DNA of 64,000 nt from Cyanidioschyzon merolae (GCA_000091205.1 AP006498.2); one strand, 5' to 3'. Shown: positions 346-63,700, counted from the stretch's first letter. Numbers and translations are program-made. The notes: generated by a model not told the origin, from the sequence alone.

Positions 346-409
346 GAGATGAAATAATATATTTCGCTACGATTCCAATGCAAATACACGTTTTACGTTA
401 AAACAACAA

Positions 410-1100: not shown

Positions 1101-1149
1101 TGAACGTGTCGCTCTAACGGACAAGACGTGTTAGGGTTGAAGTGGCAGC

Positions 1150-10949: not shown

Positions 10950-11159
10950 GGCGAAATGCGGTCAAGAAGCCTGGAGACAATTCCGGGTGCGGGCTCTCCG
11001 CGAGCACAAGCCGACGTTCTGGCTCTCTGAATGGACAGGGTCCAGTACGGGATGGTGCCGGCTTCACTAGATGCCGATAACCATGATGCATTCGAGGAGC
11101 TCTGCTTCTAGTCTTCCAGGTAAATTATGCTGGATTCTGCAGGTTCGTATCATCAAAAG

Positions 11160-20295: not shown

Positions 20296-20439
20296 ACTTT
20301 AGAAACCGCTCTCCTTGGTCTGCTTGCCGCTCAACCGACGCCAACTGCGCCGTCCACACGCCTAGAGCGCTCTGTGAGAGGTTGCTCGTCTGCGAGATCT
20401 CAAATTTTTATGACTGCAATGTTCAAGACTCGTGGTGCA

Positions 20440-21480: not shown

Positions 21481-21985
21481 CGCCTAACGGCATAAACAAG
21501 TATGTTCTTTTGAAGAAACATGAAATTCAAGGGAAAGTTACGGACATGGATGTCGAGAATCCTGGAGGCCCGATGTCTCCGGATCCGAAAGAAAATATTC
21601 GCCTCCCCGACCATGGAGCGAAGAAGAGCAATTCATGACGACGACGACGATGATGACGACGATGCGATATAGGCGAGAAAAGTTGTTTGCTCGACGGTAC
21701 GTTTGCGAAACTGTAGTGGCACCGAGAGCACGAGTTCGAGGCATCTTCGCAAAGCTAAGTTCCACTATTTGCAGTAAATGAAAGGATTTCGTTTACCGAG
21801 ACCTCAACGCCGCGATCATTATCAGACAAATGTGCAGTGCGAAAGACGATACCCGAGGAACTGACGCGATCTAACTTCGCAGGGCACTCTCTCAGGCTCA
21901 AAGTGTGTCTAGATAAACTGAAACCGATAGCACGTGGCTGGTCAAAAAAGGCTGCGAGGCTTCTCAGGGTGGATATTCATTTACT
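21480..21985 (+). mobile_element. F-family short copy fused downstream of the D relic
   Basis: ATGGATGTCGAGAATCCTGGAGGCCC start and a (GAC/GAT)n tract. ORF 21837-22175 reads EELTRSNFAGHSLRLKVCLDKLKPIARGWSKKAARLLR, and the terminus is ggtggatattcatttac. Confidence 0.6.
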
Positions 21986-22754
21986 CTATGGTCCTGGGAT
22001 ATTTTCTGTTTCACGGATCACATGTATACAGCGACTAGTTCAGATGCCGATCGGCGTCCTGTCCAACGCTAACTACACCAGTTCCAGGATAAAATGTGAC
22101 ATGGAACTATTCGCTCTGTTTCTGTCTTGCGATTTCAACCGAACTATTTTAGATGTCCAGGCTCTGCGTTCGTAGTCTGGCAATAAGCGCTTACGGATTC
22201 ATACGCAGTTTTTGGGATTTTCGGTCGACCATCCGCAGTGGCTCCATCGATGTCGTGGCGCTGGAATTCGTTACGCCACAGGATTCAAGATCATTCGCTA
22301 CGCCCTCGAACAGGGATTTGTAAAATAACCTGTATTATAATCCAATGGATAAGCAGAAGCCTTGACTCTTCTCTCCCAGTTGCGTACAGCATGCTCAAAT
22401 CAAAAGACTTTAGCATTTTTGGATCTTTCAGTGCCAATGGAACTCGTGAGTGCAGCAGTTCGCCCCACTGGATAAACGAGGAAAAGAGTGCAACGTTGTC
22501 GTCGACTATGGGCTTGTTCACAAACTCATATCAAATGCATACGGACATTTTCACGTCATAGATACGATTGCGTTCAAAAGAAATATCGTTTTCCCTTAAT
22601 GTCCATCGACGAGACGGGATTCGACAGCAGCATGAACGCGTTCAGAAAAAATCTGCCCCGAGAGCATCCGCCGCTTTTTATGTATGGGAAAGGACCAGGA
22701 ACCGGGACTTGAGTCGTCAAAGCGATTACATTCAGTGGATAGTTCGTCAGCGCT

Positions 22755-23330
22755 TTGCACGAAGGGCGCGAAGCCGGATCAAGATTTCACGATTACCTCT
22801 TTGACCTGAGTTTTAGTTTTTGGTACCGTTTTCGTCGTCGACGACAGCGCGTTCTAGTATCCCTCTATCAAATGGAGCAGCGTACGCTTATATATGCTGC
22901 GGAGAGAGTCCGCACCGAGGGGACCTCTTTGAGGAAAACGCGTGGTCATAGGATATCCGCTGGACGCATAAACGGGAACGAGCACCGTTCAGTGCCGTCT
23001 GTACCCGCCAAGGGCATGAACCGAGCGATAAAGCAAGCATTCATGCGCGACTGGGCGGCGCTTGGGGGAGAAGATCTAAAGGGTGCAGAGTTATACCTGA
23101 CCAGTATCTAGTGTAACCGCTGCGCGGGGCGCACAGAAACTGTATACAAAGAGAATGAAAATCACAAGCGAAGCGTAGATCGCAATGATCGTCTGTCAAA
23201 GAAGTACATCGACAGCATCCGAAAGCAGCGGAGTCAGATCCCTAAAGCTACCATCGACATCCTCCGACTGCTGGCAAGAGAACCGGAGGGAAAAAAGTGA
23301 CCAGCATATTCAAAGCCAGCACGTAAGGGA
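22755..23330 (+). mobile_element. C-family relic, plus orientation
   Basis: ORF 22755-23111 reads ...LYQMEQRTLIYAA...VPAKGMNRAIKQAFM. The downstream frame reads CNRCAGR...RSVDRNDR, a CxxC followed by a degenerate D-R-N stretch. Confidence 0.4.
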
Positions 23331-27389: not shown

Positions 27390-28140
27390 TACACTGATTT
27401 TTTCGATGACAAAACGTTTACATTGACCTTGCATCCCGGATTGCAGGATAGATAATGGTAATCAAAGAAGTGTCCAACATGATGCACCTTACCTCCAAGT
27501 TCCATGACTTATTCTCGGATGTATTGGTCGTTTCGTATGTTCTATCGTGCGCCAGGTACCTGCTTTGAGCACCCGCCTTGGTACCTAAACTGCTGTTACG
27601 GATGCTGCACGTAAACAGAGCGGCTTTGCCATACCACTGAGCGCTTCGGCTGGAGGAATGCTTCACCTAACATGGAGTCGGGATCCATTATAATCCTGGG
27701 TGCCGGTAAGCTGTGCAGACAGACGTACTGTCTGCGGCAGCGCGAAGCGATGTACAAGGAGTCCACTGCGACCGGGGCGATCCCCAGACGCAGCGTACCC
27801 GCTCCTAGTCTTGGAATAAACTGCGTTTTGGACGAGCTGCTCAGGTCCATTCACAGCACTGGGCGCTGGAAAGAGCATGAATGACTGGTCTAGCAGACAC
27901 GTCCGGCTCGCGAGACCCTCCTCCTATAGGGTAAACTTTCGACAGTGTGGAAAGCGTGTCCGCCTTTTAACGTTTATCGTAGATGGGGAAAGTAATCATT
28001 TTATTGTCGCTACTTAGTGGCTTCTTTCTGTTCTTCGTTCTGAATAGAGCGCTCGATGCGCGAACCTCCATACCTGGCAGGAACTGAACATGTCGCGTAT
28101 CTCGCAGATGGAGGGAAACGCGATCCTGACCGCTCCTTGC
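27390..28140 (-). mobile_element. B-family copy, inverted relative to the copy at 410-1100
   Basis: The TIR at 28100-28140 (ggagggaaacgcgatcctgacc) is the inverse of the 412-435 TIR. 27850-28000 matches 550-830 and 63050-63290. Minus ORF 27418-27666 (GAQSRYLAHDRTYETTNTSENKSWNLEVRCIMLD) matches plus ORF 63301-63618. Confidence 0.6.
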
Positions 28141-28239
28141 CCTATTTCTCTAAAGGGCGAGTTGTATTCTCGTTAACTTCATAGCCAAGTATAGTTTTCA
28201 ATTCGATTGCTTTTCAACCCTCAAGTAAAAATATTCGAT

Positions 28240-30656
28240 TGACTTTTCGCAGTATATAACAGAAGCGTTCAAAGAGCGTTCTTTTTCAAAAAAAATAAAA
28301 ATGAAAAGTTATGAGAAAGCAAGTCGACGATCCTGGAGGCCCAGTGTCGCTGGGTGCCAGACAAAAAAACGAAAAACTGTGCCTAGTCCAGAGGAACAGG
28401 AAAAGGCAAAGAAGCAAGGGCAGGAAGACCGACGTCAGTGGCTGCAAGAAAGACGACAGTACGACGAGACGGTGGGGAAAGCCTGTTTTCTTAAACATAT
28501 CAAGGATCCGCATAGAGAAAAATCGCGAGAGGTCATTAGGAACCGTGTCGATTCGTACTCCAGGAGGAGTATAAAGTCGTCCTCAGGACTAATGCATCTG
28601 GTGAAGGGGATGTACGAAGACGTGATGGACATGGAAACAGTCGAGGTTCCGGAAGAATTCTTCGACAAGACCTATATTCGTCACCTGATGCTTGGTAGAG
28701 CGGAAGCGCAGAGGGAAAAAGAGCGGATACACGTCCTCACGAAAACCATCCTTTTTACAGCTTCGAGGGTGCTCGAAACAAGGGTGACCGGGATATTCAC
28801 GACAATGGGGCGATGAAGTAGATCACGAACCTGAAGAACCATTTGACAGTGAACCTCGAACGTTTCATGAAACGCACCGTGTTTGCACTCTACTCGGGCC
28901 TATCTCGCAATGGAAAATGGGCGATTATCAATGGCATCACGAAAGATCGCAAGCGTGAAGATGAAGTCGAATTCGTCGACAAGAAGGCATCAAACGAGAG
29001 CACGAATGAAGCTTCTGTAATCCGTGCGGCTATAGAAGAGCATCGTGCAGTCCTGGAGCTGGCGAATCCAACAGACAAGATATCAGAGTTGAAAGAAGCT
29101 AAGGAAAGATACTATCGCCTCGTCCTGCGCTATTTCGTGTTTCTGGACCAAGAACTCGAACGCAAGGCAGAGGTGAAGCAGCGTGAGGAAAGCAATGAAG
29201 AGTGGGAGAGACGGAAGGCTTTCCTACTGGGGAAGCGCCTCAACGTGGTTCCAATGTGCAACATCAAGTCACATTTTGTGACTATCCACTCCAGAATCCT
29301 TCACGGCATCATGGAGGAGATTAGTCCGGAGTTCGATGTTAGCAGGGAGGAATTCTCCGGTGAAAACCGGGAGACGTACTGGAAGAATATCTTCGATTTC
29401 AAACATCTCAAAGTGAGCAAGCAAAAGGTATTCAATGGGATGATCGAAACCGATGGGGTAGCCTTGTGTGTACACTATCGGCGGTTGAAAAGAGATCGTC
29501 CAGTTCCACCCTCGGCTTCGCCCGTGACGAAGGATGAAGAAAAGAAGGAGGCGGATCCTGCGACGCAGGAGGTATAGGATAAAGACCTTGTCGTTGACGT
29601 GACGAAGGATGAAGAAAGGGAGGAGGCGGATCCTGCGACACAGGAGGTGGAGGATAACGACCTTGTCGTTGACGCGGTGAAGCATGAAGATGAGAAGGAG
29701 GCGGATCCTGTGATGCAGGAGGTAGATGGGAACGACTTTGTCGTTCGTGCTGACCCCGGAAACACAAATATCGTAATCATCGCAGTATCCAAGCGTGCGG
29801 AAGACGGTACCGACGGTAATTTTCGTCAGAGACATGCGTCTTTTGAGGTTCTCGAAAATGATATATTATCGAGAATCCGGCACAATGAATGCAAGGAAGA
29901 AAATTGAGACATGGAATGCAGGAATGAAGGATCACCTGGAAACTTTGAGCGAGGTGACTAGCCGAGAGGCGGACTTTCAAACTTTTCTGAAATTCATGGA
30001 AGTTCGCGTTGCTCATTGGGATGCGCTGTGGAATGAGTATGCAAAGCCCCGGTGGGCTCGTCTGCGTATGAATTTGTATTTTGGGAAGCAGCGTGCATTC
30101 GCGAACTTTTTCAATGAGCTGAGCACCTTCAAAGAAGATGAAAGTCAGAGGCTCGTAGTGGCGTACGGAGCAGGGCGCTGCGCGCCCAAAAAAGTATATA
30201 CACCAGCTCCAACGACAAGAACGTACAAGGAGAGCGCAAAGCGTTTCTTTACGATACCAATAAGATGAGTTCCGAACATCGTATACACACCATGAACTGG
30301 GGTGTACATTTCAAAGGGTCGAGATGGAAAAGTGCCAGCGGAGCCCTGAGAATATAAAAAAGTACGGAGCGCTGACAGATGAGCAAATGGAAAGGAGAGC
30401 GGAAGTTCGGGACTACTTGCATTCGTAAGTACAATCAATGGCAAGAAACGTATGGAATTTTTGATCCGGGACTTTAACGCCACAATCAATATAACAACAT
30501 GTGCGGTGATGGAGAATAGACCACCAGAGCGAACACGAGAGAACTTTGTTGGACAACCTTTCAAAATGAAACTATATGAGAAAAAGTTGAAACCAGTAGT
30601 AGGTGGCCGGTCGAGAAAGACTCGATGGTGTTTGAACGTCAGTTGGAGACTTCTTG
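28240..30656 (+). pseudogene. F-family long copy: disrupted TnpB/Fanzor-like RuvC-nuclease gene (about 790 codons over five frame-shifted ORF pieces)
   Basis: ORF pieces are 28301-28816, 28843-29577, 29599-29907, 29795-30268 and 30452-30661. [17 protein letters not shown] is a RuvC-I-like GxDPG block. LVVAYGAGRCAPKK...PAPTTRTYKE is a post-RuvC-II-like region. The C-terminus GLLAFVSTINGKKRMEFLIRDFNATINITTCAV carries D-x-NA(A/T)-x-NI, the RuvC-III signature. There are in-frame stops at 29578 and about 30400. Confidence 0.6.
29524..29748 (+). repeat. 75-bp tandem repeat x3 inside the F long copy
   Basis: Units at 29524-29598, 29599-29673 and 29674-29748 encode ...[22 protein letters not shown] / [25 protein letters not shown] / [29 protein letters not shown]. 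The last unit ends in the RuvC-I-like block. Confidence 0.7.
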
Positions 30657-30838
30657 ACTAGGGCGGGTTTCTCGCCACTACTGTACACCGCTGGCGTCGT
30701 TCGACTTTCGAACGGCGTTTTGCGATGGTTTGATCGTTGCAACGCTCCAGGAGCAAACAAGGCTTGGAAACGTGCACGCTTTTCATGGAAAGAGCGCAGC
30801 GCTGCTTGCAGAGAGAGCCTTTGATGCGGTAGAGGTGC

Positions 30839-43437: not shown

Positions 43438-44780
43438 TCTTTCCGCAGTCATCAACACCAGCCTTGGCGGATTCTCTGTGACTGCTTCCATTAGATTTCT
43501 CGTAGCTACGACTTTAAATACGCCGGTCGATCACCTCCCTCAAGATCTGTCGTCAGAGCTCGACGGATATTGATGCCAGCATTAAAGTCCCGATTTCGCC
43601 GTCTCAGGCTGGTGCCAACGCATGCCATGCCCAGGCAAAAGTTGCGATCTTCGCTTTGTCTGCCATCTCCATTTTCTCTCCAGAGCAGCATCGATACGCC
43701 CTTCGCAGCAGCGACTCTTGGTAATGGTCACGCTTTTCCTGTTTGTCCAATACGCTTCCTCCTCTGAGCGCCGCCCTGTGGCGCGTGAACGCTTGCCCCA
43801 ACGCTCACAGCACATGCACGTGCTGGGTACAGAACCATCCCGCAAGTGCCGTCCTCCATCCACGCGCCCGGTACCGTACCCTGTGATCGACAGCTTATTC
43901 CGGGTAAGTCTGCGGCAGGTGCTCTGCCCGCTGAACACGAAAGCGCACGCCACTCTATTCGACAAAGGATTTGTGGATCGCGATGTTGTTCACGATGAAA
44001 CAAGTTCCGGACGGGAAACCCGCAGCAGCCAGAAGACTGAGGAGCTTCGAACAATCCACGCTACACTGGTGCAACGCGGTGACGCACTCTGCGCTGGGGG
44101 CGAGCGCTGACGTCAGTGCGAGTCCAAGACACTTCTCCGTGCAAGCAGAAGCGCTGGAGCCTCCGAGAGCCTCCGAGAGCCTCCGAAAGCCTCCGAGAGC
44201 CTCCGAAAGCCTCCGAGAGCATACCCCCAAGAGAGATATCGTGCTGTTGTCGAACCCTATTTCGTGGATGGCCACACAGAGTAGAGAATAACTCCTTCGG
44301 ACGGAATAGATCGTTCGGCGTTCGCAGTCCAGTCCGGAATCGGCACAAGCTCGCGAAGGAGTCCTCAAGGGAAGGCGTCGAGTTTTTTGGTCGCCAGTCC
44401 ATCAGAGCAGATTCCTACGCGCTCGGGTAGCCTCGAAACCAGAGAACTCTAAAAATTGAAGAATGCGTCATTTGAGCATATTACTCGTAAGGAAGGAGTA
44501 TGAGTGGCGTCTTCTGCGTATGAATTGGATGATGGTATCGGTTATTTTACGAACCCTTTTACGGGGACGTCGCGAATGACCGTGACTCTGGGGATGAAAC
44601 GCAGTCCAGCGGGAACGAGTCGAAGGGGTCATTCCGGAAAGACCACCGATGATCCTGGAGTTATATGAAAATCCCAAACCGATTGCTGCACTTTGCATGC
44701 CGAGGACGTGCAGCTAAAAGAATTTCGGGAGAATTGCAAGGCAGGAAGAGAGCGAAGAGTTCAGTGTTTCATTTGAATCT
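43438..44780. repeat. 1.3-kb direct repeat, copy A (composite of F-like RuvC-III fragment, C-family relic and minisatellite)
   Basis: Near-identical to 51274-52575, with only a handful of substitutions plus extra minisatellite units. Identical ORFs appear in both copies: 43506-43691 = 51341-51526, 43622-44110 = 51457-51945, 43582-43965 = 51417-51800. Confidence 0.85.
44157..44220 (+). repeat. 10-bp minisatellite (GCCTCCGAGA/GCCTCCGAAA), about 6 units
   Basis: gagcctccgagagcctccgagagcctccgaaagcctccgagagcctccgaaagcctccgagagc. The paralogous position 51995-52018 has only 2 units. Confidence 0.8.
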
Positions 44781-44868
44781 GGCTCGGCTGTTGTGCACTC
44801 GTCCAGAGGAGGCACCGAAATGCCTCGGAGAACGCTCGCACTGCACTCATCTTAAGGGACTCGTGGCA

Positions 44869-46935
44869 ATGGACTTCAAAGACTTGGTTGCTCTCCGTTG
44901 TGAACTTTCTGTGCAGAGTCTGACAGAAGTTTCGGCTGCACTCCGCCGCGTGATTCTGAGCAAGTCCTACTACGAGTATCAGGTAACTAGAGCGCCCCTG
45001 CGGAGTTTCCTCAACAACGGACCGCTATGGATTTTCCAGACTCTGAGCGGTGCAGGCAGCCTATGGGTATCAAACTTTTACGACACTTGCCGGGATCTCA
45101 TCGCGTCGGGAACGAGACCGGCAACAGGCACTTCCAGTTCTGCGGCGGGCGGCGCGCCAGCGAGGGCCTCACCGACCAGGGCGAGCGATAAAACAGAAAA
45201 GAAAAAGGCTCGGAGGCTGCTGGAGCTATGTCAGGCCGCACAGCCACCGGGGCTTCGCTCTTTGTGTGAACTAGAAAGGGCCCGATGCCAGGCTGCTGTG
45301 CATGCTCTCGGCCGTCTCGAGCGAGCCTTAGCAGTGTATCTTGGAAGGGCCCAGGAGGAGCTTTCTCGTCTACGAAGTTTAGTCGAGAAAGATCCTCAAA
45401 ATAGTTCTGAGTTGCGGGCACTCTTTCTCTCTTGCGACGAATTGCATCACCGTACACTAACAGCGCTGGAAGCAACCGATGTGGATGCTATCGAGGAGGC
45501 TGTTTACGCCCACTTGTTGGTCGATTCTGACGTTCTGGCTGATCTGGATCGCTGGGCTTCTATAATGAAAGAGGATGCAGAACGATTCATTACGCTCCTG
45601 CGCGATGTTCCGCGTAGATGGAACGTCTATTTGACTCTGGAAGAGCTCAGTCGCATCATGCCTGCGGCAGGACGTCAGTCCGGAAAGCGCCGCGGTCTGG
45701 GCTTCATCGAGCGATTGCAAAGGGTTTCGCTCATTTACCCATCGCACTTTGCGAGAAACTGGATACGCTACCTGTGCGGTACCCTGACCATCTTCTGGTC
45801 CTGGACGAAAATCAGCGCACATCGCGAGCATGTGATGCATATCGCACTGAGCGTACGTCAGGTTGTGAGAGGCTTCTGGGACGAGCGCATTATTACCCCG
45901 CTCACCATGATCTACAGGGAAATCTTTCAATCGTCGTATCGAACATTCATGGATCCGAAGGCGGTTCAGGCTGAGAAAGAGACCTTGAAGCGCATGGTTG
46001 TGGATTTTACCCGGGAGGCCTATGCGCGCCTCCCGGACGACCAGCGACAGGAAGCTGAACTTCTGGCTGCAAATGGTGATCTCACACCGGTCATGAAAGT
46101 CTACGAACGCCAGATTCGCAGCCCTGTGGTGAATATGCTTGCTGGTGACGTGATCAGAGCATTACTCATACAAGTCCAGAAACTCAAAGTTGATGTCGAG
46201 CAGGAGATGGTCGCTGTAGACTCCTTGGTTCGTTCGAACGAGCTCAATCTCCAGATCGCTGCTGCCGTTCCAGGCGTTCTTGGATGTTGCCTAGCGGTCG
46301 CGCTCCTGTACCGCTGGTTCAGGCGTTGGTGGTCGAGTATTCGCCTCACTGAAGTAGATCGTTTCGGAGGTGGCGGATATCTCTGGGCCAACGCCTTCGC
46401 CGAGAAGCTTCCCACCCGTGAGCGGGCCCGCCTCTTGCTACGAGATATCGAACGCTATCTGGTGTTGACGCTTTCGCTACGCGGCCCTGAAGCAGCTTCT
46501 GCGAGGCTTCAAGAGACGCCTCTGCTCCAGAAAGCACAAGTGCTCAACGGGAGAGCGCCGGCTTCGTTGGCGTCCGCTTCTCCGGAACGTGTGCAACGAG
46601 TATCAGATCGAACGCTCGCGACGTTCTTCCCTGGCGGTCTCGCTCAGGGTGAAACTGGCGAGAACCTCAAAAGCAGTGAAAATAGTGTGATTTTTCTCTC
46701 GACGGCTTGCATTGCTGAGTACGAAGACAAAGGACGTATTCTTCTCACCCTGGACGAACTGGAGGCCATGGTAACGAGCCGCGCTGGAGAGTTTGGGATC
46801 AGCCGCGGCTCTCAGCTGGAGACTCGCCTACGTGAAGATCTTTTGGACCTGAGATCATTCGCTCTCGACGCTGAACAAAAACTGCTCACAATCCTTCGAA
46901 TGCGCTCTACATATCCCTTTTTATGGGATCGCTAG
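44869..46935 (+). CDS. conserved hypothetical protein with one predicted TM helix (AAVPGVLGCCLAVALLYRWF)
   Basis: The 756-aa ORF 44665-46935 has its first 34 codons inside the 1.3-kb repeat (they are shared with ORF 52460-52675). The start was therefore placed at the Met of MDFKDLVALRCELS (44869). No family motif was recognised with confidence. A vague NCA2-like resemblance is unverified. Confidence 0.45.
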   Translation: MDFKDLVALRCELSVQSLTEVSAALRRVILSKSYYEYQVTRAPLRSFLNNGPLWIFQTLSGAGSLWVSNFYDTCRDLIASGTRPATGTSSSAAGGAPARASPTRASDKTEKKKARRLLELCQAAQPPGLRSLCELERARCQAAVHALGRLERALAVYLGRAQEELSRLRSLVEKDPQNSSELRALFLSCDELHHRTLTALEATDVDAIEEAVYAHLLVDSDVLADLDRWASIMKEDAERFITLLRDVPRRWNVYLTLEELSRIMPAAGRQSGKRRGLGFIERLQRVSLIYPSHFARNWIRYLCGTLTIFWSWTKISAHREHVMHIALSVRQVVRGFWDERIITPLTMIYREIFQSSYRTFMDPKAVQAEKETLKRMVVDFTREAYARLPDDQRQEAELLAANGDLTPVMKVYERQIRSPVVNMLAGDVIRALLIQVQKLKVDVEQEMVAVDSLVRSNELNLQIAAAVPGVLGCCLAVALLYRWFRRWWSSIRLTEVDRFGGGGYLWANAFAEKLPTRERARLLLRDIERYLVLTLSLRGPEAASARLQETPLLQKAQVLNGRAPASLASASPERVQRVSDRTLATFFPGGLAQGETGENLKSSENSVIFLSTACIAEYEDKGRILLTLDELEAMVTSRAGEFGISRGSQLETRLREDLLDLRSFALDAEQKLLTILRMRSTYPFLWDR

Positions 46936-48099: not shown

Positions 48100-48600
48100 T
48101 GGGGGCTTCTCAGCGATTGTTTCCGCTTCCTCTCTCCTGTCCACGCCATTCGGTACACTAGTCGCTACAGTTCCGTTATCAGCTGTTGGAAGATGTGGAT
48201 GGCAGTGACAAAGACCCGATTTCGCTCCTTCTCGCTGTTGTCGACGAATGCAGTGCAGAGGCGGCAGTTACAACCTGCGCTTCTGTTGCTATTTTCAATT
48301 TTTTTGTTTACAGCCTCGGTTCGCCCTTCGCAGCAGTGGTACTTGACTGCCGTCACGTGTTCTCGTACGTCCATCTCACTTTTACCTCGAGCACCGCCTT
48401 GTGGTGCGTGACGGTTGCTTCATCACTCAGAACATGCCGTGGGCTGGTACGGAGGACTCCCCATAATGTCCTTCTCCGTTTCCGCACCTGGTCCCGTACC
48501 TAACGATTACGGACTCCTTCTGGGCGGTACAAACGGCGAGTGCTCTGTTCCCTGCACATGCGAGCGCATCCTGTTCCATTCGATAGTTGATGTTTAGAAA
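48100..48600 (-). mobile_element. C-family relic
   Basis: Plus ORFs 48186-48503 and 48415-48597 share H.R..HRSVH..DGY...LLGK...LFH-type frames with the other C copies. Minus ORF 48165-48374 is Cys-rich (KYHCCEGRTEA...SAGCNCRLC). Confidence 0.4.
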
Positions 48601-49406
48601 GAGACGTTGTCCATAATGAACCGAGTGAAGGAAAAATATTTCAGGCCGGAGATCAAGTCGGGATACTTAGATCCGTCTACGCCCTCGGCATGGGAAACGG
48701 TGACTCACGCTCCACTGGAAGCGATCGCTGGAATGCCTCGATTCCCAGTCCAGGAACTTTTCCATGGAAACAGAAAAGACGGGAATCGCTGGATCCGCAA
48801 TCGGTGAGAGGTTCATGCTGCTGCCGAATCCTGTATTTCGGATAGCCTGAAAGAGAGAAGGATTTACCTTTCGAACAGAGTCGATCATTAAATGTGACAA
48901 GTTAAGCGAAATTTCAGCATGAACTTCTTAACAAGGCCCTGATGGACGTTGTCGAGTTTTTCTCTCGCCAATCTAGCTATGCGAAGGGTTGCGACAACAA
49001 AGTTGCCTTCAAACAGCAATATGGAAAACTTGAGGAACGCATGATTTGAGCATGGAACACCTAGTGACTTGGGAAGATTGGAGGCTTGCGCGTGTGAACT
49101 GGATAATGATATCGTCTATTTTACGACCCGCCGTTCGAAGGCGTTGCGAATCATCTTAATTCGTGTGAAGTTACGAATTCCAGCAGCAAATAGTCGAAGA
49201 CGCCATTCCGAAGACACAACCGAGAATTCTAAAATCTACATATGAACCAGTAAGTCCTCACAGCTGTACTTTAAAATGTCGATGCTTAACGTCTAAAAAC
49301 AAGTGCGAATAAAAGTCGAAGTGCAGGAACATTGCGAGTAGTCCAGCGTTCCATTTTTAATCTGACGCAGTTGTGGAGGGACAATGAATCCCGGAGCGAC
49401 TTTGCC

Positions 49407-51273: not shown

Positions 51274-52575
51274 CTTTCCGCAGTCATCAACACCAGCCTT
51301 GGCGGATTCTCTGTGACTGCTTCCATTAGATTTCTCGTAGCTACGACTTTAAATACGCCGGTCGATCACCTCCCTCAAGATCTGTCGTCAGAGCTCGACG
51401 GATATTGATGCCAGCATTAAAGTCCCGATTTCGCCGTCTCAGGCTGGTGCCAACGCATGCCATGCCCAGGCAAAAGTTGCGATCTTCGCTTTGTCTGCCA
51501 TCTCCATTTTCTCTCCAGAGCAGCATCGATACGCCCTTCGCAGCAGCGACTCTTGGTAATGGTCACGCTTTTCCTGTTTGTCCAATACGCTTCCTCCTCT
51601 GAGCGCCGCCCTGTGGCGCGTGAACGCTTGCCCCAACGCTCACAGCACATGCACGTGCTGGGTACAGAACCATCCCGCAAGTGCCGTCCTCCATCCACGC
51701 GCCCGGTACCGTACCCTGTGATCGACAGCTTATTCCGGGTAAGTCTGCGGCAGGTGCTCTGCCCGCTGAACACGAAAGCGCACGCCACTCTATTCGACAA
51801 AGGATTTGTGGATCGCGATGTTGTTCACGATGAAACAAGTTCCGGACGGGAAACCCGCAGCAGCCAGAAGACTGAGGAGCTTCGAACAATCCACGCTACA
51901 CTGGTGCAACGCGGTGACGCACTCTGCGCTGGGGGCGAGCGCTGACGTCAGTGCGAGTCCAAAACACTTCTCCGTGCAAGCAGAAGCGCTGGAGCCTCCG
52001 AGAGCCTCCGAGAGCATACCCCCAAGAGAGATATCGTGCTGTTGTCGAACCCTATTTCGTGGATGGCCACACAGAGTAGAGAATAACTCCTTCGGACGGA
52101 ATAGATCGTTCGGCGTTCGCAGTCCAGTCCGGAATCGGCACAAGCTCGCGAAGGAGTCCTCAAGGGAAGGCGTCGAGTTTTTTGGTCGCCAGTCCATCAG
52201 AGCAGATTCCTGCGCGCTCGGGTAGCCTCGAAACCAGAGAACTCTAAAAATTGAAGAATGCGTCATTTGAGCATATTACTCGTAAGGAAGGAGTATGAGT
52301 GGCGTCTTCTGCGTATGAATTGGATGATGGTATCGGTTATTTTACGAACCCTTTTACGGGGACGTCGCGAATGACCGTGACTCCGGGGATGAAACGCAGT
52401 CCAGCGGGAACGAGTCGAAGGGGTCATTCCGGAAAGACCACCGATGATCCTGGAGTTATATGAAAATCCCAAACCGATTGCTGCACTTTGCATGCCGAGG
52501 ACGTGCAGCTAAAAGAATTTCGGGAGAATTGCAAGGCAGGAAGAGAGCGAAGAGTTCAGTGTTTCGTTTCAGTCT
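51274..52575. repeat. 1.3-kb direct repeat, copy B
   Basis: See copy A (43438-44780). The differences include gcaggattcctacgcgc versus gcagattcctgcgcgc and fewer minisatellite units. Confidence 0.85.
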
Positions 52576-52804
52576 GAAGGTTGTAAAGTGCGATTGGTCA
52601 ACGATACTTGCACTGCCCATCAAGAGAGTTTTACGGATCATCGTTTCCCCACCGCTGCCAAAAATTTGCAACTAAGCATTGCGAGCTGGATCATGTTCTA
52701 CATCGTGTAAAATCGATCCGCACTTGTCCAACAGAGGCATTCGTCCGTGCCCCTGAACGAAAGCCTCGCCTGGAATTCTCAACGTGAAGGTTCTCCCGTC
52801 CGTG

Positions 52805-56384: not shown

Positions 56385-59300
56385 TCACGCCTGCGGGCCC
56401 TGATCTGTGCGCGTGTCGCCGCACATGCAGTGCTCAAGCTCACGCTCAAGAAGGGAATCACAGGCATCCTCTGCATCTGGCGATAGGGCTTCTGCTTGCC
56501 GGTGATTGGGAAAGCCAAGTGACGCCCCCGAGAGGTCTCGCTCCCCAACATTGTTGCAGGGAGCTTCTCCGTCATCACAGGAGTCCGGGATGTGCCCCGT
56601 CCTCCAAGGGACGTGCTCCTGTGCAAACTCTCGCCCCTCCTCTGCCTCGGAGGCAGGGGAAACAGCGTGCAAGCCGTGCTGCAAGCGCTCGGCACGAAGA
56701 CTAGCCATCTGCGCGCGGTATGCCTCCAAGTTCACAAGCTTAGAGATGCTGGATCCATCCTGTCCCGATGCGCGTTGTGCAACAGAATCCCCAGCGAATG
56801 TTGCAGAAGCGCTTTCACCGTCATCAAGTAGATGCTCCAGTTCATTGGCGCGGCGCATATCCTCCGCAGAACAGACTAACCAAGTGGGTTTCACAATGAA
56901 CACGCTATTCATTGCTCTAGCAGTCTGGGTTTTCAGTGTATCGCGGCCTCGTTGCGGATCAGCAATAAGATGGGAAACCTGCGGAAGTACCTCCCGATGG
57001 CATACGGCGCCGAAACGAACCGCTAAGCGCCACAGCTCGTGATCCTCAGGAGCCATCCCAGCATGCTTGGCAAACACACCCGTAAAGCACAGCTCGCAGC
57101 CAGTCAAAACAGAGCGCCGCAGCTCAGCGAGGATATCTTTGATGCTCGCCGGCGGTCGCCAGAGTGGAAGCGAAGCGCTCACGGTATACGCCTTCCCGCG
57201 CTTCACAGGATCCAAACCTCCTGACGGAGGAGGCACTGGTGGTGTCGAGCGCGACTCCGGCGTCGCCTCTGGATGGCAGCGAGGACGAAGTACTCTGCGC
57301 GGGCGACGTGTTGCTCCATCATGTTCCGGGTTAGACCCAGGGGAAGGTTTTTGCGTGGTGCTGCTCTCCGCCAGGGTACCACTGGTGATACGGTTTTGTT
57401 CATCGCCTTCAGCGAGCGCCAGCGCTGCCGTGCGACGCAGCAGGTTCTGACGGAGTTGCGTTGCAGGCGACGGAGAGCGCCTCTGCTCCCTCGCTCGCTC
57501 GGGAAAGCGGTTCCGCGTTTTCTTCGTCGGCGCGACACTTTGGCGCTCACTCGAGTCAGCTATTGTGGGCTTGTCGTATCGCCCAATTTCTCCTTCACAG
57601 TTCGGATCAATCGTGAAAGACGTTCGTTCTGAGACGCTATCTTTCAATGCAATTCCGCCCGTGTTCATCTCTCTGGAAGCCGAAAGATTCCGTTTTCTTC
57701 CGGTTCGCGTGTAACCCACTGCACTACCCAGCGTTGCCCACGCAGTCGAACCCGAGTCAGCACTCTGCTTGCCGCTCTCCCCGTTGCTACGTTTCAGGCT
57801 TTGCTCCAAGAGTCGTCGAGAGCGGCGAATGATTTTGCCATCCGCACAAGACTCCCCTCCGAGGGCTTGTGATATCAGCAAAAAAGTGGAACCAGACTCC
57901 ACCTGTGCAGGCGTATTCCTATCGACCATGCTGTCCCAGGACCGCTGTGTTATGGGCGTCGGCGTATCGCCAAGCCCGTCAGTTCGGCTCTGTTCAGAGA
58001 GATCGCCCTTTGTGGAGAAACTGAGGCCTGGGTCGCGCTCTTCCTCGGCGACGTCCGCAGCCGCAGTGAAATCATGCACAGTCGGCGCTGGAGACGGTGA
58101 CGCTATCGCCGCACTCTCGTCGTCATCGTCGTCGTCGTCAACATTTTCGTCTTCCGCACCATCAGAGTCTGCGACATGAAGGCTTCGAGCTTCGACAACC
58201 ACGGAACTAGCTTGGTTGCCATCTGCAAACTCGCCACCGCCGTCAGTTCCCAGAATGCTGCTGGGATAATCCTTCGCACCGCCAGTTCCTAAATCGTACG
58301 TAAATGCAAGGTTGGCATCTTCTGCGTGTAGAATCCGTGCTGCGCCCGTCGCTTCTTGAACCTCAAACGTAGCCGGCAACATGCGCATTCCGGTTTCAGC
58401 GGAGAGCGGCGAGTCGGTACCCGACTTGGTCCGTTTCTCGTGGCGGTCCCAAACCATCATCTGCATCGCCCCGGCGGATGTCCCACGATAGACTGCGCAG
58501 CCCCCTTCGTCCGGCATTTTGGAAGGGCCCTTCGTCAGGAACAACTCTGTCGAAGTGCCCTTTGGACTCTGGTTATCGCAATAAGATGGAAACGTATGCA
58601 TGTTTGGTTCCGAGTCGCCATCGTAAGCATTCGAGGCTTTCGCATTGACGGCGGCGCCTGTGCGCTGCAGTAGTTCGCCTCCTCGTGCTTTGTAGCCATG
58701 GATATCAGCCACGGTCGAATAGGAGCCCGGGAGAAATGATCCCTCTGCTTTGGAGGAAGCAATGAGGGGTGATCCTGATAAGGCATTAACCGCCGGATCG
58801 GAGGACGAGCGTTCTTGTGTTGGCTCATGCTGCGGTGCGTTTGCCTGCAAGACAGCCTCGCTTACATTTCCGTCGAGGGTGCGTCGCTCAAGTGGACATT
58901 GATCCGGATAACGTGCAGTTACGGAGTCTGAATGTCGCCTGAGTCGCTGTATCCGTGATCCCTTCTCGAAGACGTCTCGCTCATGTGCTACCTCGGCTAG
59001 CCTCTGCCGAGGATACTCGATCGAAAGCGATTGCAGTTGATCAGACTTGGACACTGAAGTGCTCGGGTCCAACTCACTCGCTGCAATCGGATGCTGCTCG
59101 ATCCCAGATGCTACATATTGGTCGTAGAGGGTGAAAAATCGCTGGTGGCATTCGGCTAGAATTTCCGCAAGCCGTCGGAGATGGCTGTGATCCTGATGAT
59201 CAGCAGCAATCCACTGCTGCAGAAACCATAGGGCGCTCTTCACTGCAGAGCTCGGGCTGTTTTGCGAATTTTCAGACAAGAGTACACCCTCACGAGATGG

Positions 59301-61322
59301 GGCAGGATCCCCATCAACGATCAGGCTCAAGTCCGAATGATCATGAGTATTCGTAAGAATGTCAGTGGTTGCTGTGTGCTGTTCTCGTTGAAAGGTCTCT
59401 TCGAGTCCGCGGAAGAAATAGTATGGCCTTGCTCTAATGAGATTCGGAAAATGGCGTCCGTGCAAAGACTGATCCTGAGCGACCCAAACATCCTCGCGGT
59501 CATCAACAACTAGAACCATTGAATCGTCACAGGGAAACACGTGTTTCAGATTCTTCTGGTTCAGCCGACCATCTTCAAAGTCATCTCTTGAGGTTATCCG
59601 GCCCTGGAACAACCGCTCATCCGAATCGATTATAGAAGCAACAGTGTCCGCATATGGTCGCGAGCCCATCGTGTAAATGTGAAGCTCAAAACGATCCGCG
59701 ATCGTTCTGAGAAATTCATGCAGACCGGGACGTAGTTTGATGTAATAAAGAGACGTATTCGCATCTGCTGTCTGACCAATTCCTTTTGAGCTGTTCGTTT
59801 GCTGCAGGGAGGCCGGGTCAGTCCGCCACCATCTCCAGAATGGAACCAGTTTCGCGTCAGTGGTGTTGTCCAATGGTGCACAACCCCTTGACGCTGAGGT
59901 GTCTTTGCCGATTGCAAAGGCGAAGATCCCAAGTCGCTGGAACAGGTTTTGCAGAAGCCTATCTACGGTTGCAGCAGATTGCTCCGTAGCGTTCAAGTCT
60001 GCCCGATCCGCGGAGACCTTGGATACGACCCGGTTGGGGCTGTCCATCCTAGTCAGCTCCCGGAGGAGACGTTCCGCAATGGGAGCGCTCGGGTCTTGAA
60101 GTATTCGCTCCCATTCGCTTAGCGCCCCCGTGAGCTGTAACGAGGCGTGAAGCGTGCTCGACAGAACGCACAGAATTTCTCGAGCCCTCGGGTCATTCGT
60201 TGCGTGGACTAGTGTGTGATCTAGATCAAGCACAAGCGGCAATTTGCGCTGACGCAACAAGCGTCTTGCATTCTCCTCTGATAGTTCTTCGGCCTTACGA
60301 AGCGAAACGCTGAGCTGATGGTTTTGGTAGGCAACCGGTATGTGGAATTTTCGACTGGATCGAAGGATATCGCTACCTGAATCCTCCATCCAGGCGACAC
60401 GTCTAAACGAAGAACCATGCCCCATGCTGGGACCATACGAAAAAGTGGTACTTTCTTGTGATTGAGGCCGCGCTACCGTGGGTACCGCGCGAGCCTCGCT
60501 TGACACGTCCCTTTGGCAGTTGACGCAAATACCGCGGTAAACAGTCGAATGTGTGCAATACTGCACAGTGCCGATAACCTGGCCAGGTTCGACACGTGCA
60601 GGTGAGAACGCGCACGCACGTATGACCTCAGACAGCTGTTCCTTGTCGCTTTCGGACTCCATAATCGAGGCTAATTTCTGTGCAAGATCAGTTGGTAACT
60701 GTGCCGCCAAATGTTTCAGAGTACCGTTCACTCTGGAAGGCAGGTGAGCTCGGCCTACGCGAAACATTGGCTCCTGTCCACTGCCTTTTCTGGTGACTAG
60801 ACCTGATTGGCCGTTCGTGGTCGAAACAGGACCTTGCCCGCTGTGCTCTGTCTCAAAAAGTACGACTTTAACGCTTTCATCAGTGCGCGAAGGTTGCTCT
60901 ACGCTGAAGCGCACCAGTTCTGCTACAGAACTCCCAGCTGCCACATCCCCACCATCTTCGGCGTACCAGTGCATAATAACATAGAAGGGAAAAGCTACAA
61001 CCTCCGTATTCAGGGAGCGCGTCTCTTTCCTTCCAGCCTTCTCGGAAGCCCAACTCGAGTCGTTCTGAGCCTCGACACTCGCATTAGCCGCGGTGCTGTC
61101 CTCTAAGGGAGTCGTTGAGGAACTCAGCGGTGTCGTGGAGCCTCTCCACGCGGTAGCCTCCGCCGCAGTAGAAACGCTGGAGCTCGTCGAGCACGTGAGC
61201 GCGGCGTCCGCGCACTCGCTGGGGCCTCGAGTCGGACCCTCCAGTACTGGAGGCCAGCAGCTCGGTGCTCGAAGCTCCCACGTTTCCCAGTCCCCTTCCA
61301 TGGCCATATTGGGCCTGCTCAA
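56385..61322 (-). CDS. FCP1: RNA polymerase II CTD phosphatase FCP1-like protein (FCP1-homology phosphatase domain plus C-terminal BRCT), 1645 aa with long low-complexity inserts
   Basis: RKLPLVLDLDHTLVHAT is the DxDx(T/V) catalytic motif. YIKLRPGLHEFLRTIADRFELHIYTMGSRPYADTVASIIDSDERLFQGRITSRDDF...KHVFPCDDSMVLVVDDREDVW is FCP1-homology. The BRCT-like C-terminus is LTGCELCFTGVF...VSHLIADPQRGRDTLKTQTARAMNSVFIVKPTWLVCS. A poly-Asp run (DDDDDDDE) is encoded by (GAC)n at about 58095-58135. Confidence 0.7.
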   Translation of the reverse strand: MSRPNMAMEGDWETWELRAPSCWPPVLEGPTRGPSECADAALTCSTSSSVSTAAEATAWRGSTTPLSSSTTPLEDSTAANASVEAQNDSSWASEKAGRKETRSLNTEVVAFPFYVIMHWYAEDGGDVAAGSSVAELVRFSVEQPSRTDESVKVVLFETEHSGQGPVSTTNGQSGLVTRKGSGQEPMFRVGRAHLPSRVNGTLKHLAAQLPTDLAQKLASIMESESDKEQLSEVIRACAFSPARVEPGQVIGTVQYCTHSTVYRGICVNCQRDVSSEARAVPTVARPQSQESTTFSYGPSMGHGSSFRRVAWMEDSGSDILRSSRKFHIPVAYQNHQLSVSLRKAEELSEENARRLLRQRKLPLVLDLDHTLVHATNDPRAREILCVLSSTLHASLQLTGALSEWERILQDPSAPIAERLLRELTRMDSPNRVVSKVSADRADLNATEQSAATVDRLLQNLFQRLGIFAFAIGKDTSASRGCAPLDNTTDAKLVPFWRWWRTDPASLQQTNSSKGIGQTADANTSLYYIKLRPGLHEFLRTIADRFELHIYTMGSRPYADTVASIIDSDERLFQGRITSRDDFEDGRLNQKNLKHVFPCDDSMVLVVDDREDVWVAQDQSLHGRHFPNLIRARPYYFFRGLEETFQREQHTATTDILTNTHDHSDLSLIVDGDPAPSREGVLLSENSQNSPSSAVKSALWFLQQWIAADHQDHSHLRRLAEILAECHQRFFTLYDQYVASGIEQHPIAASELDPSTSVSKSDQLQSLSIEYPRQRLAEVAHERDVFEKGSRIQRLRRHSDSVTARYPDQCPLERRTLDGNVSEAVLQANAPQHEPTQERSSSDPAVNALSGSPLIASSKAEGSFLPGSYSTVADIHGYKARGGELLQRTGAAVNAKASNAYDGDSEPNMHTFPSYCDNQSPKGTSTELFLTKGPSKMPDEGGCAVYRGTSAGAMQMMVWDRHEKRTKSGTDSPLSAETGMRMLPATFEVQEATGAARILHAEDANLAFTYDLGTGGAKDYPSSILGTDGGGEFADGNQASSVVVEARSLHVADSDGAEDENVDDDDDDDESAAIASPSPAPTVHDFTAAADVAEEERDPGLSFSTKGDLSEQSRTDGLGDTPTPITQRSWDSMVDRNTPAQVESGSTFLLISQALGGESCADGKIIRRSRRLLEQSLKRSNGESGKQSADSGSTAWATLGSAVGYTRTGRKRNLSASREMNTGGIALKDSVSERTSFTIDPNCEGEIGRYDKPTIADSSERQSVAPTKKTRNRFPERAREQRRSPSPATQLRQNLLRRTAALALAEGDEQNRITSGTLAESSTTQKPSPGSNPEHDGATRRPRRVLRPRCHPEATPESRSTPPVPPPSGGLDPVKRGKAYTVSASLPLWRPPASIKDILAELRRSVLTGCELCFTGVFAKHAGMAPEDHELWRLAVRFGAVCHREVLPQVSHLIADPQRGRDTLKTQTARAMNSVFIVKPTWLVCSAEDMRRANELEHLLDDGESASATFAGDSVAQRASGQDGSSISKLVNLEAYRAQMASLRAERLQHGLHAVSPASEAEEGREFAQEHVPWRTGHIPDSCDDGEAPCNNVGERDLSGASLGFPNHRQAEALSPDAEDACDSLLERELEHCMCGDTRTDQGPQA

Positions 61323-61499
61323 GGCGTCTCAGAGCCAAGACGGCTGAGGCTGCTCCGCAGCGTGCGAGGAAAGCGTTCGTTGCAGTTGCACAGCCTTCAT
61401 GCGGCGACCGTCCAGCGACCGCCACCTCGAGATCTTCATCCGCGCGCAGTGCGTCCGACGCGAGCCTGGAGCAGCCGGACCTGTGGCGAAGTCCGACGA

Positions 61500-62520
61500 C
61501 GCTTGGCATAGCTGCACTTCCTGTCGTTCAACGCAATGCTGTTCCGTACCCGCTGCGTATCATTGAATGCTTATTCGATGTTTATAGCAAGAGATCGAGA
61601 TCGTTATGCAATGCACCCTACATACCGCAGACGGGTTGCCTGTATGGTACACTCTGTACTGAGGAGTGTACCGGGAACTGCATGCCTCCTTCAGGTCAGT
61701 CATACCGCATTACTTTGATGGCAGAGGAACGCTGAAAGAAATAACTAGATCTGCTCCGCGCCGAAAACTGGTATTGCCAAAGTATGTTTGCGGTCAATGG
61801 TACAAAAACAACCCGTTGATCTCTTGAGGGAAAGCAAAAGCTGTGATAGGAGCTGCTAGGACTGTCTCTGTTACTCAGTAGCTTGTTCGCTTGATCCTGA
61901 AAACACTGGGACACAGTCGCAAGAAAAGGCAATCTAATTCAGCACCATCTTGCACGGAAATCGCAACGAAAGCGTTCCTAGAACGTTGCGATCGGTATGA
62001 AGCTGAGCAACGCCCGTGTATTTCAGTCGATGTGGCTTGCTTCGGATGAAACGGTCGGAGCGTACATAAGTATTTGCTGGGCGGGAGCCCGGCGTATGTA
62101 CGATCCAACACGAAGAGAATGACGACATTATCATCTGTTCTAGGTACAGTGTATGCATATGGCGGCCTCAGTTTCGCTTATAAAGAAGGCTCATACATCA
62201 GGACCCTTTTCGTCGAATTATTCAAGATTTTCCTCCTCACGTCTGGCGGCGTCATTTTGTTGGACAACGTGGCGTTTCACCATTCCCCTTGCGTTCGAGC
62301 TTTTGCAGATGCGGTTGGGGTAGAACTGCTTTTCACTCCTTCGTACGCTCCTTGGTTAATCCCAGTCCAGGAGTGTTTTCTATCATGAAACGTAATGAGC
62401 GCTCCACTGGGCGTACTGATGAAGCGTTCAGCACACGGTGACACCAGGGCACATTTCGTCTTTCCTCCGCAAGTCCCTGTCTCTCCGGGAGGGTTTTCCC
62501 CTAAGGGCATAAAAAGGTGC
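61500..62520 (+). pseudogene. D-family copy 2: Tc1/mariner-superfamily transposase C-terminal remnant
   Basis: ORF 62074-62388 reads ...GGVILLDNVAFHHSPCVRAFADAVGVELLFTPSYAPWLIPVQECF. DNxxxH is followed 36 residues later by the E of PxxE, the Tc1/mariner DD(34-37)E third catalytic block (compare fqqDNapcHts...lpPYSPDLNPIE). Upstream frames are degraded. Confidence 0.55.
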
Positions 62521-62996
62521 GTTTATTTGAAGGAATAAAAAAATCCGAGGGAAAATTAAGGACATGAAAGTCGGGGATCCTGGCGAGCCGTCATCGCCAG
62601 CTGCCGGAAAACAACGAAAAACTCCTCCGCCCGCCCACCATCGAGCGAAGAAGGACAAGTGACAAAGAAGAAAACAGAAGTTTAGCTAGAAATGGTGTTT
62701 CCTCCAACAGAACAATGAATAGGCTGTTGTAGCATATACAGCATGAGTTCTGGGAGTCCTTCCAAAGGTGAATTCTATCAGAGGCAATAAACGCATGGAG
62801 TACGTGAAGCGAGACTTTACGCTGCTACCAACATCATACGCTATGTGGTGCTGTATACGAGACTACAGGAGCTTAGGCGATATGAGTTTGTAAGGCAGCC
62901 TCTCAGGGACTTGGTGCAAAGAGAAAAACTGAAGCCAATGGCAGGAGGGCGGCCAAAAAGGCTGCGAGGCGTCTTCGGGTGGGTGTCAATTTGCCA
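62520..62996 (+). mobile_element. F-family short copy fused downstream of D copy 2
   Basis: GGACATGAAAGTCGGGGATCCTGGCGAGCC start. A 3-prime part encoding ...RDFTLLPTSYAMWCC...LRDLVQREKLKPMAGGRPKRLRG (degenerate) and the terminus gggtgggtgtcaatttgcc. Minus ORF 62428-62658 mirrors the other copies (DDGSPGSPT). Confidence 0.55.
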
Positions 62997-62999
62997 AGG

Positions 63000-63700
63000 A
63001 TAGCAAGAACAGAAACTAAACACTTACTAGCTGCCCGATAACGATTTCTTCCCGCCTCTACAGTAAGCGTTGAAAGGGAGGGAAGGGTTCCGTATATTCG
63101 AAAGTTTACCTTCTAGGCGGAAGATCCCCCGACCCGGACGAGTCTGCCGGGCTTACGCTCCGTTTGAATCTGCAGTGACGAAAGCTGTGATGAAGTTTGA
63201 GCAGCTCGTCCGAAATGCAAGTTATCCTGGGACTCGGAGCTGATATGCTGCCTCTGGATGTCGCCCTGGTCGCAGTGGACTCCTAGTATATCGCTTCGCG
63301 TTGCCGCAGGCAGTATGTCTGTCTGTACAGTTTCCAGGCTCCCAGAATGATAATGAATCCCAACCTGTGTCGGATGAACCACGCCTCGGTCCGACGCCTC
63401 AGCAGTATGGCAAAGCCGCTCTATCTCCGTTCTGCATCGGCATCAGCGGTATGGGCGCTTTCGCTGGAGCCCAGAGCAGGTACTCGGCACGCGACAGAAT
63501 GTATGAAGCGACCAGTGTGTCCAAGAAGAAGTATCGGTTATGGAACTTGGAGTTAAGGTGCCGCGTGATGGACGCTTTCCCGAAAGCCAAGACCCATCCG
63601 GCAATCTGGAATCCATAGTCTATGTAAATATTCTGTCAAAGAAAAAAGATCGACGCGATCGCTGCCTCTGTTGGATGCTGCCGCCCTCGATGTTTCCCAT
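63000..63700 (+). mobile_element. B-family copy, 5-prime-truncated, abutting the F copy
   Basis: 63050-63290 aligns with 550-830, and 63540-63690 aligns with 940-1080. ORF 63301-63618 matches the minus ORF 27418-27666. The right TIR is degenerate. Confidence 0.5.

Follow-up and report, generated by a model that had tools for sequence, protein, structure and literature searches.

Fanzor nucleases attract interest as RNA-guided genome editors from eukaryotes, and their relationship to the transposons carrying them is a matter of current research. Here we describe a composite repeat, part transposase and part Fanzor, that is present twice in a 64,000-nucleotide stretch (the window) of Cyanidioschyzon merolae 10D chromosome 16, the chromosome being taken from the CMP locus tags. 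Of ten host reading frames compared by exact sequence, eight match strain 10D proteins (BAM81787-BAM81799, with tags such as CMP167C) encoded on a record of 908,485 bp. The occurrence of Fanzor1 genes inside autonomous Mariner/Tc1 transposons is established (PMC3627910; PMC10530073), and the mariner-type carriers include PUl-1 and PUl-2 of Pythium ultimum as well as PGv-1 (PMC3627910). In published systems the guide RNA of Fanzor and TnpB comes from a transposon end (PMC10530073). The Fanzor1 family of C. merolae, CMe-1A, was described by Bao and Jurka in 2013 as a consensus of 3169 base pairs (bp) with ~150 copies, each ~80% identical to it; the first 635 bp are another repeat, TE-N2_CMe, and some copies still encode an intact Fanzor. 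That study reported no inverted terminal repeats and an undetermined target duplication, and concluded for this transposable element (TE) that its 'TE classification is unknown' (PMC3627910). Both the C. merolae family itself and the presence of Fanzor1 in Mariner/Tc1 transposons are thus already published. A search of a library of papers returned none linking the C. merolae family to a transposase, and such a link appears to be new.

The composite is very probably a deletion derivative of one two-gene transposase-Fanzor1 transposon that is now dead. An origin from one element is indicated by the gene order in intact relatives, by a full-length relic (locus L077) and by ~29 loci together with a restored transposase consensus. 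The window copies are dead, since their transposase carries stops, frameshifts and damaged catalytic residues and RuvC motifs I and II are missing from their Fanzor part. An earlier reading made from the sequence alone (the sequence-only reading) had described a transposase remnant fused to a short Fanzor copy. The transposase remnant stands, whereas the supposed fusion would give way to two genes of one ancestral transposon.

The two composite copies and their transposase gene

C. merolae has a gene-dense, almost intron-free genome, and old repeats fill the intergenic regions of the window. Copy B (61541-62982) aligns to copy A (20511-21972) with 69.5% identity over 1480 aligned nucleotides (nt; E=3e-161), the transposase and Fanzor (F) portions being colinear in both copies with an identical junction, as the sequence-only reading had proposed. 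Element boundaries were set by aligning distinct loci, 24 at the left end and about 20 at the right, which places copy A at ~20487-22019 and copy B at ~61517-~63000. Copy B lacks the final ~35 nt and adjoins an inverted TE-N2_CMe copy at 63005-63638. No flanking host DNA is common to the two loci. Transposase and F part travelled as one unit, as had been supposed. The features of the two copies are as follows.

61517-61610, plus strand: copy B 5′ terminal leader, 94 nt; left boundary common to 24 distinct loci
61611-62512, plus strand: copy B transposase pseudogene of DDE_3 / IS630-Tc1-mariner type, ~300 codons (Pfam DDE_3 and the family model described below)
62513-62563, plus strand: copy B spacer of 51 nt, transposase stop to Fanzor start; CMe-1A homology resumes at ~868
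62564-62674, plus strand: copy B Fanzor1 N-terminal remnant, MKVGDPGEPSSPAAGK... (BLAST: CMe-1A consensus 906-~1011)
62746-63000, plus strand: copy B Fanzor1 C-terminal remnant and truncated 3′ tail (CMe-1A ~2849-3082)
20487-20582, plus strand: copy A 5′ terminal leader (alignment)
20583-21495, plus strand: copy A transposase pseudogene, more decayed than in copy B (family-model fragments in three frames)
21498-22019, plus strand: copy A spacer, internally deleted Fanzor1 and complete 3′ end (ATG at 21546)

The predicted open reading frame (ORF) at 62074-62388 on the plus strand was found, ending ...VILLDNVAFHHSPCVRAFADAVGVELLFTPSYAPWLIPVQECFLS, and its Tc1/mariner/IS630 block matches Pfam DDE_3 (PF13358) far beyond chance: copy B scores 41.7-42.6 bits (E=7e-11 to 1.4e-10), the curated gathering score being 28.6 bits. 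With window:62053-62385 as query, HMMER retrieved 339 relatives from 1.84 billion proteins, among them a family of intact proteins of 295-305 amino acids. A hidden Markov model (HMM) built from 12 intact relatives matched copy B with 148 bits (E=4e-46; residues 69-259 at 61804-62379), its positions 1-78 falling at 61611-61832 and 277-296 at 62432-62491. The remnant therefore extends well beyond the C-terminal block to which it had first been assigned, and comprises nearly the whole gene, from the ATG at 61611 to the TAA at 62510-62512. A candidate transposase N-terminus in the leftmost 75 nt was rejected, because the ATG lies at 61611; this left piece is an untranslated leader.

The copy B gene has suffered three frame changes and several stops. 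Its catalytic codons are D1 at 62029 and D2 at 62263, while the position of the catalytic E, 62368, encodes Q, the local PVQE aligning to PIEG of the family. In all 11 intact or near-intact relatives with D, D and E all locatable, the spacing between the last two is D-34-E, the triad reading D-76-D-34-E with slight variation of the first spacer, and by this spacing the family is DD34E. The 'DD36E-like' spacing given earlier was a miscount on a mutated copy, in which the E counted was codon 62371, the 36th residue after D (35 between). In copy A the stop reported in the homologous block is a TGA at 21333-21335 within ...YAP*FNPIEG; the second D is changed to E, and the catalytic E at 21348 is retained. 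Between copies A and B, mismatches are evenly spread over the three codon positions (0.287, 0.289 and 0.281). The composite copies have thus decayed neutrally, to ~70% pairwise identity at present. Selection on the transposase was not detected between A and B, and the comparison with copy L004 gave at most a weak third-position excess.

Look-ups of four ORF fragments among the HMMER matches gave four more composite copies (L004, L015, L016/L017 and L018), each ~67-71% identical to copies A and B. A six-copy consensus regains the motifs DETCFGR, LLDNVAFHHS and NPIEG, and with them the catalytic triad. Its DDE_3 score rises to 75.2 bits, compared with 42 for copy B and 97.4 for the intact relative L006, and it aligns end to end (1-301) to intact relatives at 38-44% identity. 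The block can therefore be extended into a complete DDE_3 transposase, both in other copies and in the consensus, and the master copy of the transposase was probably coding, as judged from this reconstruction. Support for a helix-turn-helix at the N-terminus varies: an intact relative matched HTH_23 with 26.1 bits (cut-off 24.6), HTH_32 and HTH_Tnp_Tc3_2 remaining under their cut-offs, and the C. merolae consensus matched HTH_Tnp_Tc3_2 with 20 bits, also under the cut-off; the N-terminal 78 residues of copy B do fit the family HMM. Among solved structures, the one similarity that turned up was weak (SETMAR, mariner-type domain; E=7e-4).

The genomic setting of the intact relatives bears directly on the origin of the composite. 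In five of five look-ups (L006/L007, L008/L009, L010, L011-L013 and L014) an intact transposase is followed on the same strand by a Fanzor1 homologue of 620-650 amino acids, at a distance of 9-114 nt and with CMe-1 homology of E 5e-76 to 2e-155. The arrangement is repeated in those metagenome loci from other environments whose contigs continue beyond the transposase gene. Altogether, intact two-gene elements were located at L006 (GCA_037963435.1), L008, L010, L011, L014, L032-L040 and L049-L053. These intact ~3-kb elements occur in assemblies and metagenomes with a guanine-plus-cytosine (GC) content of 35-60%, some of the contigs being approximately element-sized. In L006 and L008 the element has TA-flanked, imperfect inverted ends starting TACACT, and the left edge of L006 was confirmed against L007. 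The order of genes agrees with the known pattern of Fanzor1 in Tc1/mariner elements (PMC3627910; PMC10530073), as had been suggested.

The Fanzor part, CMe-1A and the wider family

To place the F part, the CMe-1A consensus was taken from the supplement of PMC3627910 and mapped onto the window. F parts lie at 1236-1766, 11107-11673, 21498-22019 and 62514-~63000, with a partial one at 4638-4880. In translation the F part reads ...KRMEFVNRDFNAAINIRR, which corresponds to the RuvC-III end of a TnpB/Fanzor protein as in CMe-1, whose N-terminus reads MEKEVEDPGGPVSPAAGKK; the identification of F as Fanzor was thus correct, and the family is the Fanzor1 family CMe-1 (PMC3627910). The RuvC-III motif reads ...YRDLNAAIII at ~21794 in copy A, and a decayed form is found at ~62807 in the C-terminal remnant of copy B. 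The other relevant copies in the window are listed here.

1236-1766, plus strand: F-short copy F1, with the same internal Fanzor deletion and no transposase (alignment)
11107-11673, plus strand: F-short copy F2, with 5′ terminus and Fanzor deletion as in the composites
27404-30717, plus strand: full-length CMe-1A copy used as reference, 84-87% identical to the consensus, positions 1-3169
63005-63638, minus strand: TE-N2_CMe (CMe-1A positions 4-635), a neighbour outside the element, 81% identical to the CMe-1A consensus

All four F-short copies consist of CMe-1A ~868-970 joined to ~2833-3088. On this alignment, F-short is a Fanzor gene with its middle deleted, the deletion being common to all copies. 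Copies A and B lack CMe-1A ~1010-2833, the stretch that holds GADPG and DEFRTS. Of Fanzor the composite retains ~25-35 codons at the N-terminus and the RuvC-III segment, and motifs I and II are gone; judged by its motifs, the composite holds a Fanzor fragment and no complete Fanzor gene. The full-length CMe-1A copy, in turn, has no transposase and a Fanzor1 gene that is complete but decayed. In this copy a ~75-nt tandem repeat occupies 29523-29745, corresponding to CMe-1A ~2117-2196, and the same tandem copies are present in L077 at 4728-4882, which places the two in one sub-lineage.

The left ~75 nt of the composite (20489-20566; 61519-61594) are homologous to CMe-1A 785-862 (z=5). In addition, the leader of L004 is 84% identical to the CMe-1A leader region, and the sequence upstream of F1 and F2 is also homologous. 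Relative to CMe-1A the composite has one extra segment of ~920 bp, which begins 16 nt ahead of the transposase ATG and ends with the stop codon. With the leader accounted for by this homology, what CMe-1A lacks is exactly the transposase ORF. In F2 the transposase is deleted at a junction identical to that of CMe-1A. Three segments of the composite align to CMe-1A with 65-76% identity, not colinear with the whole 3169-bp consensus, and on this evidence the composite is a sister subfamily of CMe-1A, not a copy of it.

A scan of metagenomes with the six-copy consensus gave 146 relatives, of which 80 were kept; together with the loci described above, these group into 42 clusters (95% identity), of which about 29 come from C. 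merolae-type contigs. Three metagenome contigs (L044, L045 and L047) represent the copy-B locus itself at 99.6-99.8% identity, showing that the hot-spring samples contain C. merolae strains. An empty orthologous site was not found: L001 at locus A and L044, L045 and L047 at locus B, all 99.3-99.8% identical, carry the same insertions. The loci of the family have unrelated flanks and common left and right boundaries, and their architectures are of three types. Type 1 is like copies A and B. Type 2, found at no fewer than eight distinct loci (L023, L048, L061, L041, L071, L098, L076 and L075), has the transposase joined directly to CMe-1A ~2737-3090, the Fanzor N-terminal stump being gone. In type 3 the transposase is interrupted by a TE-N2 copy. 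Furthermore, L077/L095 is a full element, made up of the same leader, a transposase with 78% identity to the composite consensus, and next to it CMe-1A 876-3119 at 84-88% identity. This relic indicates that the transposase and a CMe-1A-type Fanzor were once parts of one element in the C. merolae lineage.

These data bear on the idea of a nested insertion, in which an independent Tc1/mariner-like transposon would have hit an F-short copy just upstream of the Fanzor start, the nested structure then being amplified. The comparison with CMe-1A, F1 and F2 lends it some appearance, since relative to these the transposase segment resembles a ~920-bp insertion between ~862 and ~868, and a weak similarity of the sequences before both junctions could be read as a duplication. 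However, the segment comprises only the transposase ORF and the 16 nt in front of its ATG, so that a nested element would have had no space for terminal repeats, and no inverted repeats were found at the edges of the segment. Moreover, the intact relatives, in unrelated hosts, all have the order transposase then Fanzor1 with similar short spacers, the L077 transposase adjoins a full Fanzor gene, and in the loci surveyed the C. merolae transposase family largely does not occur without a downstream Fanzor part. We regard a nested insertion as improbable.

The same loci were informative with respect to duplication of a segment of host DNA carrying old transposon debris. Such a duplication would fit with the position of copies A and B, each of which starts ~200 bp upstream of an oppositely oriented host gene, but given the short intergenic regions of C. 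merolae, proximity to genes is to be expected. In addition, homology ends at the same positions in about two dozen loci with unrelated flanks, about 29 loci exist, the genes next to copies A and B are not paralogous, encoding a dual-specificity phosphatase and an FCP1-like phosphatase, and the two loci share no flanking host DNA. We therefore give a host segmental duplication hardly any credence. As for the setting itself, the intervals between host gene start and composite are 20295-20487 and 61322-61517, and the genes are those for the dual-specificity phosphatase (19369-20295, copy A side) and an FCP1-like C-terminal domain phosphatase (56385-61322, copy B side). In so compact a genome the closeness of the composites to these genes may be due to chance.

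Element ends and neighbouring repeats

The left boundary consensus from the 24 distinct loci is CTTATAGTCTTTCAACTCAATTTTGTTTCACC, and the right boundary consensus from ~20 loci is ...CCATGGTCGTGAAACGTTTTCGTTTCACTGAWC, the element ending ...GTGAAACGTTTTCGTTTCACTGAWC. Near the right end, ~5 nt from the terminus, the consensus of the ~20 loci contains an 8-bp hairpin, GTGAAACG-TTTT-CGTTTCAC. It is found in decayed form in copy A (21994-22014) and in F1 (1744-1763), and has been lost from copy B; individual copies retain 4-8 of the 8 pairs, with a few compensatory changes (TA to CG, AT to GC). This hairpin could be a recognition structure for the transposase or part of a Fanzor guide RNA. At the edges of the transposase segment no inverted repeats were detected. 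A match picked out by eye, TATAGTCTTTCA / TGAAATGTATA, was dropped because it was not significant.

Conservation of the right end raises the question of whether the composite is still functional, either as a source of the Fanzor 3′ guide-RNA scaffold acting in trans or as a regulatory insertion for neighbouring genes. All deletion derivatives retain the 3′ ~250 nt with the subterminal 8-bp hairpin, which shows a few compensatory changes, guide RNA is known to come from a transposon end (PMC10530073), and an intact Fanzor is encoded by some CMe-1A copies (PMC3627910). On the other hand, retention of the ends is normal for any transposon deletion derivative, the copies are ~30% diverged without codon-position bias, and the hairpin keeps 4-8 of 8 pairs per copy and is missing from copy B. 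A present function is therefore quite unlikely, and the dead state of the window copies remains the preferred reading.

Several other repeats lie close to these elements. TE-N2_CMe adjoins or interrupts them in several orientations, for instance at 63005-63638 (minus strand) next to copy B and at 800-1037 (minus strand) upstream of F1, and at two separate loci, L087 and L022, it has inserted into the transposase at one and the same site, consensus ~975. Either a target preference of TE-N2 for these elements or joint movement with them may account for this pattern. Also present in the window are remnants of another family of DDE_3-like transposases, more distant than the first (e.g. ...MSIDETGFDSS...) and identified with the family HMM (E=2.6e-7 and 1.2e-8).

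22416-22808, plus strand: second DDE_3-like family remnant
13845-14392, minus strand: second DDE_3-like family remnant
48558-49215, minus strand: second DDE_3-like family remnant
43961-44626, minus strand: second DDE_3-like family remnant
51796-52421, minus strand: second DDE_3-like family remnant

These remnants are part of other repeat families in the window, and none adjoins a Fanzor piece; one of them is found ~400 nt downstream of composite A. A direct repeat pair (43439-44781 / 51274-52576; 1.3 kb, 96.6% identical) is far younger than the other repeats of the window, most of which have 65-82% identity. Between its two copies, which hold weak transposase-like fragments on the minus strand, is the NCA2 gene (44665-46935).

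Origin of the composite and comparison with known systems

With the observed homologies, gene order, common junctions, full-length relic, intact relatives and copy number in hand, we propose the following course of events. The ancestor would have been a compact cut-and-paste transposon of ~3.3-3.6 kb, in which a ~90-nt 5′ leader and a gene for a ~300-amino-acid DD34E transposase were followed by a ~50-nt spacer, a Fanzor1 gene of ~730 amino acids and a short 3′ end. An internal deletion of Fanzor codons ~25/35 to ~640, with the transposase kept, would have given rise to the composite, and this 'transposase + Fanzor stump' derivative would have spread to many sites, including those of copies A and B. 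CMe-1A would be the reciprocal derivative, having lost the transposase ORF (16 nt before the ATG to the stop), kept Fanzor and gained an unrelated 785-bp front piece that includes TE-N2_CMe. Both deletions combined would yield F-short. Recombination or template switching between copies would have taken part, abortive gap repair being a plausible source. By analogy with known Tc1/mariner and Fanzor biology (PMC3627910, PMC10530073), we infer cut-and-paste movement by the DD34E transposase, with Fanzor as an RNA-guided nuclease passenger.

A number of points weigh against this origin. Inverted terminal repeats above shuffled controls were absent from copies A, B, L004 and F1 and from the consensus termini, where erosion in ~30%-diverged copies could hide short ones. 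A flanking TA pair could not be assigned consistently, the left consensus being CTTATAGTC and the right ...TGAWC. The TA duplications that the sequence-only reading had proposed to look for at the composite boundaries, and inverted terminal repeats, were seen only in intact relatives from other organisms. A conserved left terminus combined with a subterminal hairpin on the right looks atypical of Tc1/mariner. The F parts also defy a simple tree: the Kimura two-parameter distance is 0.28 between F1 (1236-1766) and copy A (21498-22019) and 0.49 between copy A and copy B (62514-62996), although only A and B share the transposase. Since F1 is nearer to A than B is, and since junctions are common across the types, recombination or template switching among copies has to be assumed. 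Among five relatives the similarity rankings of Fanzor and transposase are similar and not identical. Finally, the six-copy consensus requires three frame corrections, the intact master transposase being one that we infer, and most of the metagenome contigs are tied to C. merolae by sample, GC content and repeat content only.

We think it rather likely that the composite and its ~29 sister loci are a 'missing link', meaning that CMe-1A descends from a DD34E two-gene transposon that is intact elsewhere, and that the derivatives were then amplified separately, the Fanzor-only form becoming commoner and staying coding for longer. If so, C. merolae would be a natural case in which to ask whether a Fanzor is able to persist or spread without its transposase. 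The full-length relic L077, the intact relatives and the reciprocal deletion derivatives together argue for a link to the Tc1/mariner type. The tie to a transposase would classify the C. merolae Fanzor family, which was published in 2013 as unclassifiable for want of inverted terminal repeats and a transposase, and would provide an example of a two-gene transposon split into transposase-only and Fanzor-only lineages. No new mechanism is revealed, and the dead copies in the window are ordinary relics.

Compared with CMe-1A, the composite belongs to the same genome and the same Fanzor1 protein family, likewise has no detectable inverted terminal repeats, and shares positions 785-862, 868-~1010 and ~2833-3088. 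Unlike CMe-1A, it has a ~300-codon transposase gene and lacks ~1.8 kb of the Fanzor gene; it begins at CMe-1A ~785, hence without the TE-N2 part, and its 3′ tail diverges after ~3088. At ~65-75% identity to the CMe-1A consensus, it is a different, older subfamily. With the intact relatives it shares a transposase that is 38-44% identical end to end and has the D-76-D-34-E triad, as well as similar leader and spacer lengths, and their Fanzor1 proteins are 30-42% identical to CMe-1. These relatives differ in being intact, in occurring in other organisms and in having TA-flanked ends (L006 and L008), and they have no similarity to the composite at the DNA level.

The published PUl-type elements are more distant. 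Their transposases are 25-30% identical and have 43 residues between D2 and E, as opposed to 34 here, and the elements possess inverted terminal repeats of 24-33 bp and TA duplications, neither of which is seen in the C. merolae copies. The relationship is nevertheless detectable by blastp, with E=3e-6 and 2e-8 for copy B against the PUl-1 and PUl-2 transposases, respectively, and 4e-14 and 9e-15 for the consensus. Like the proposed ancestor of the composite, the PUl-type elements of ~3-3.6 kb carry a transposase, in their case of 308-310 amino acids, followed by Fanzor1 on the same strand.

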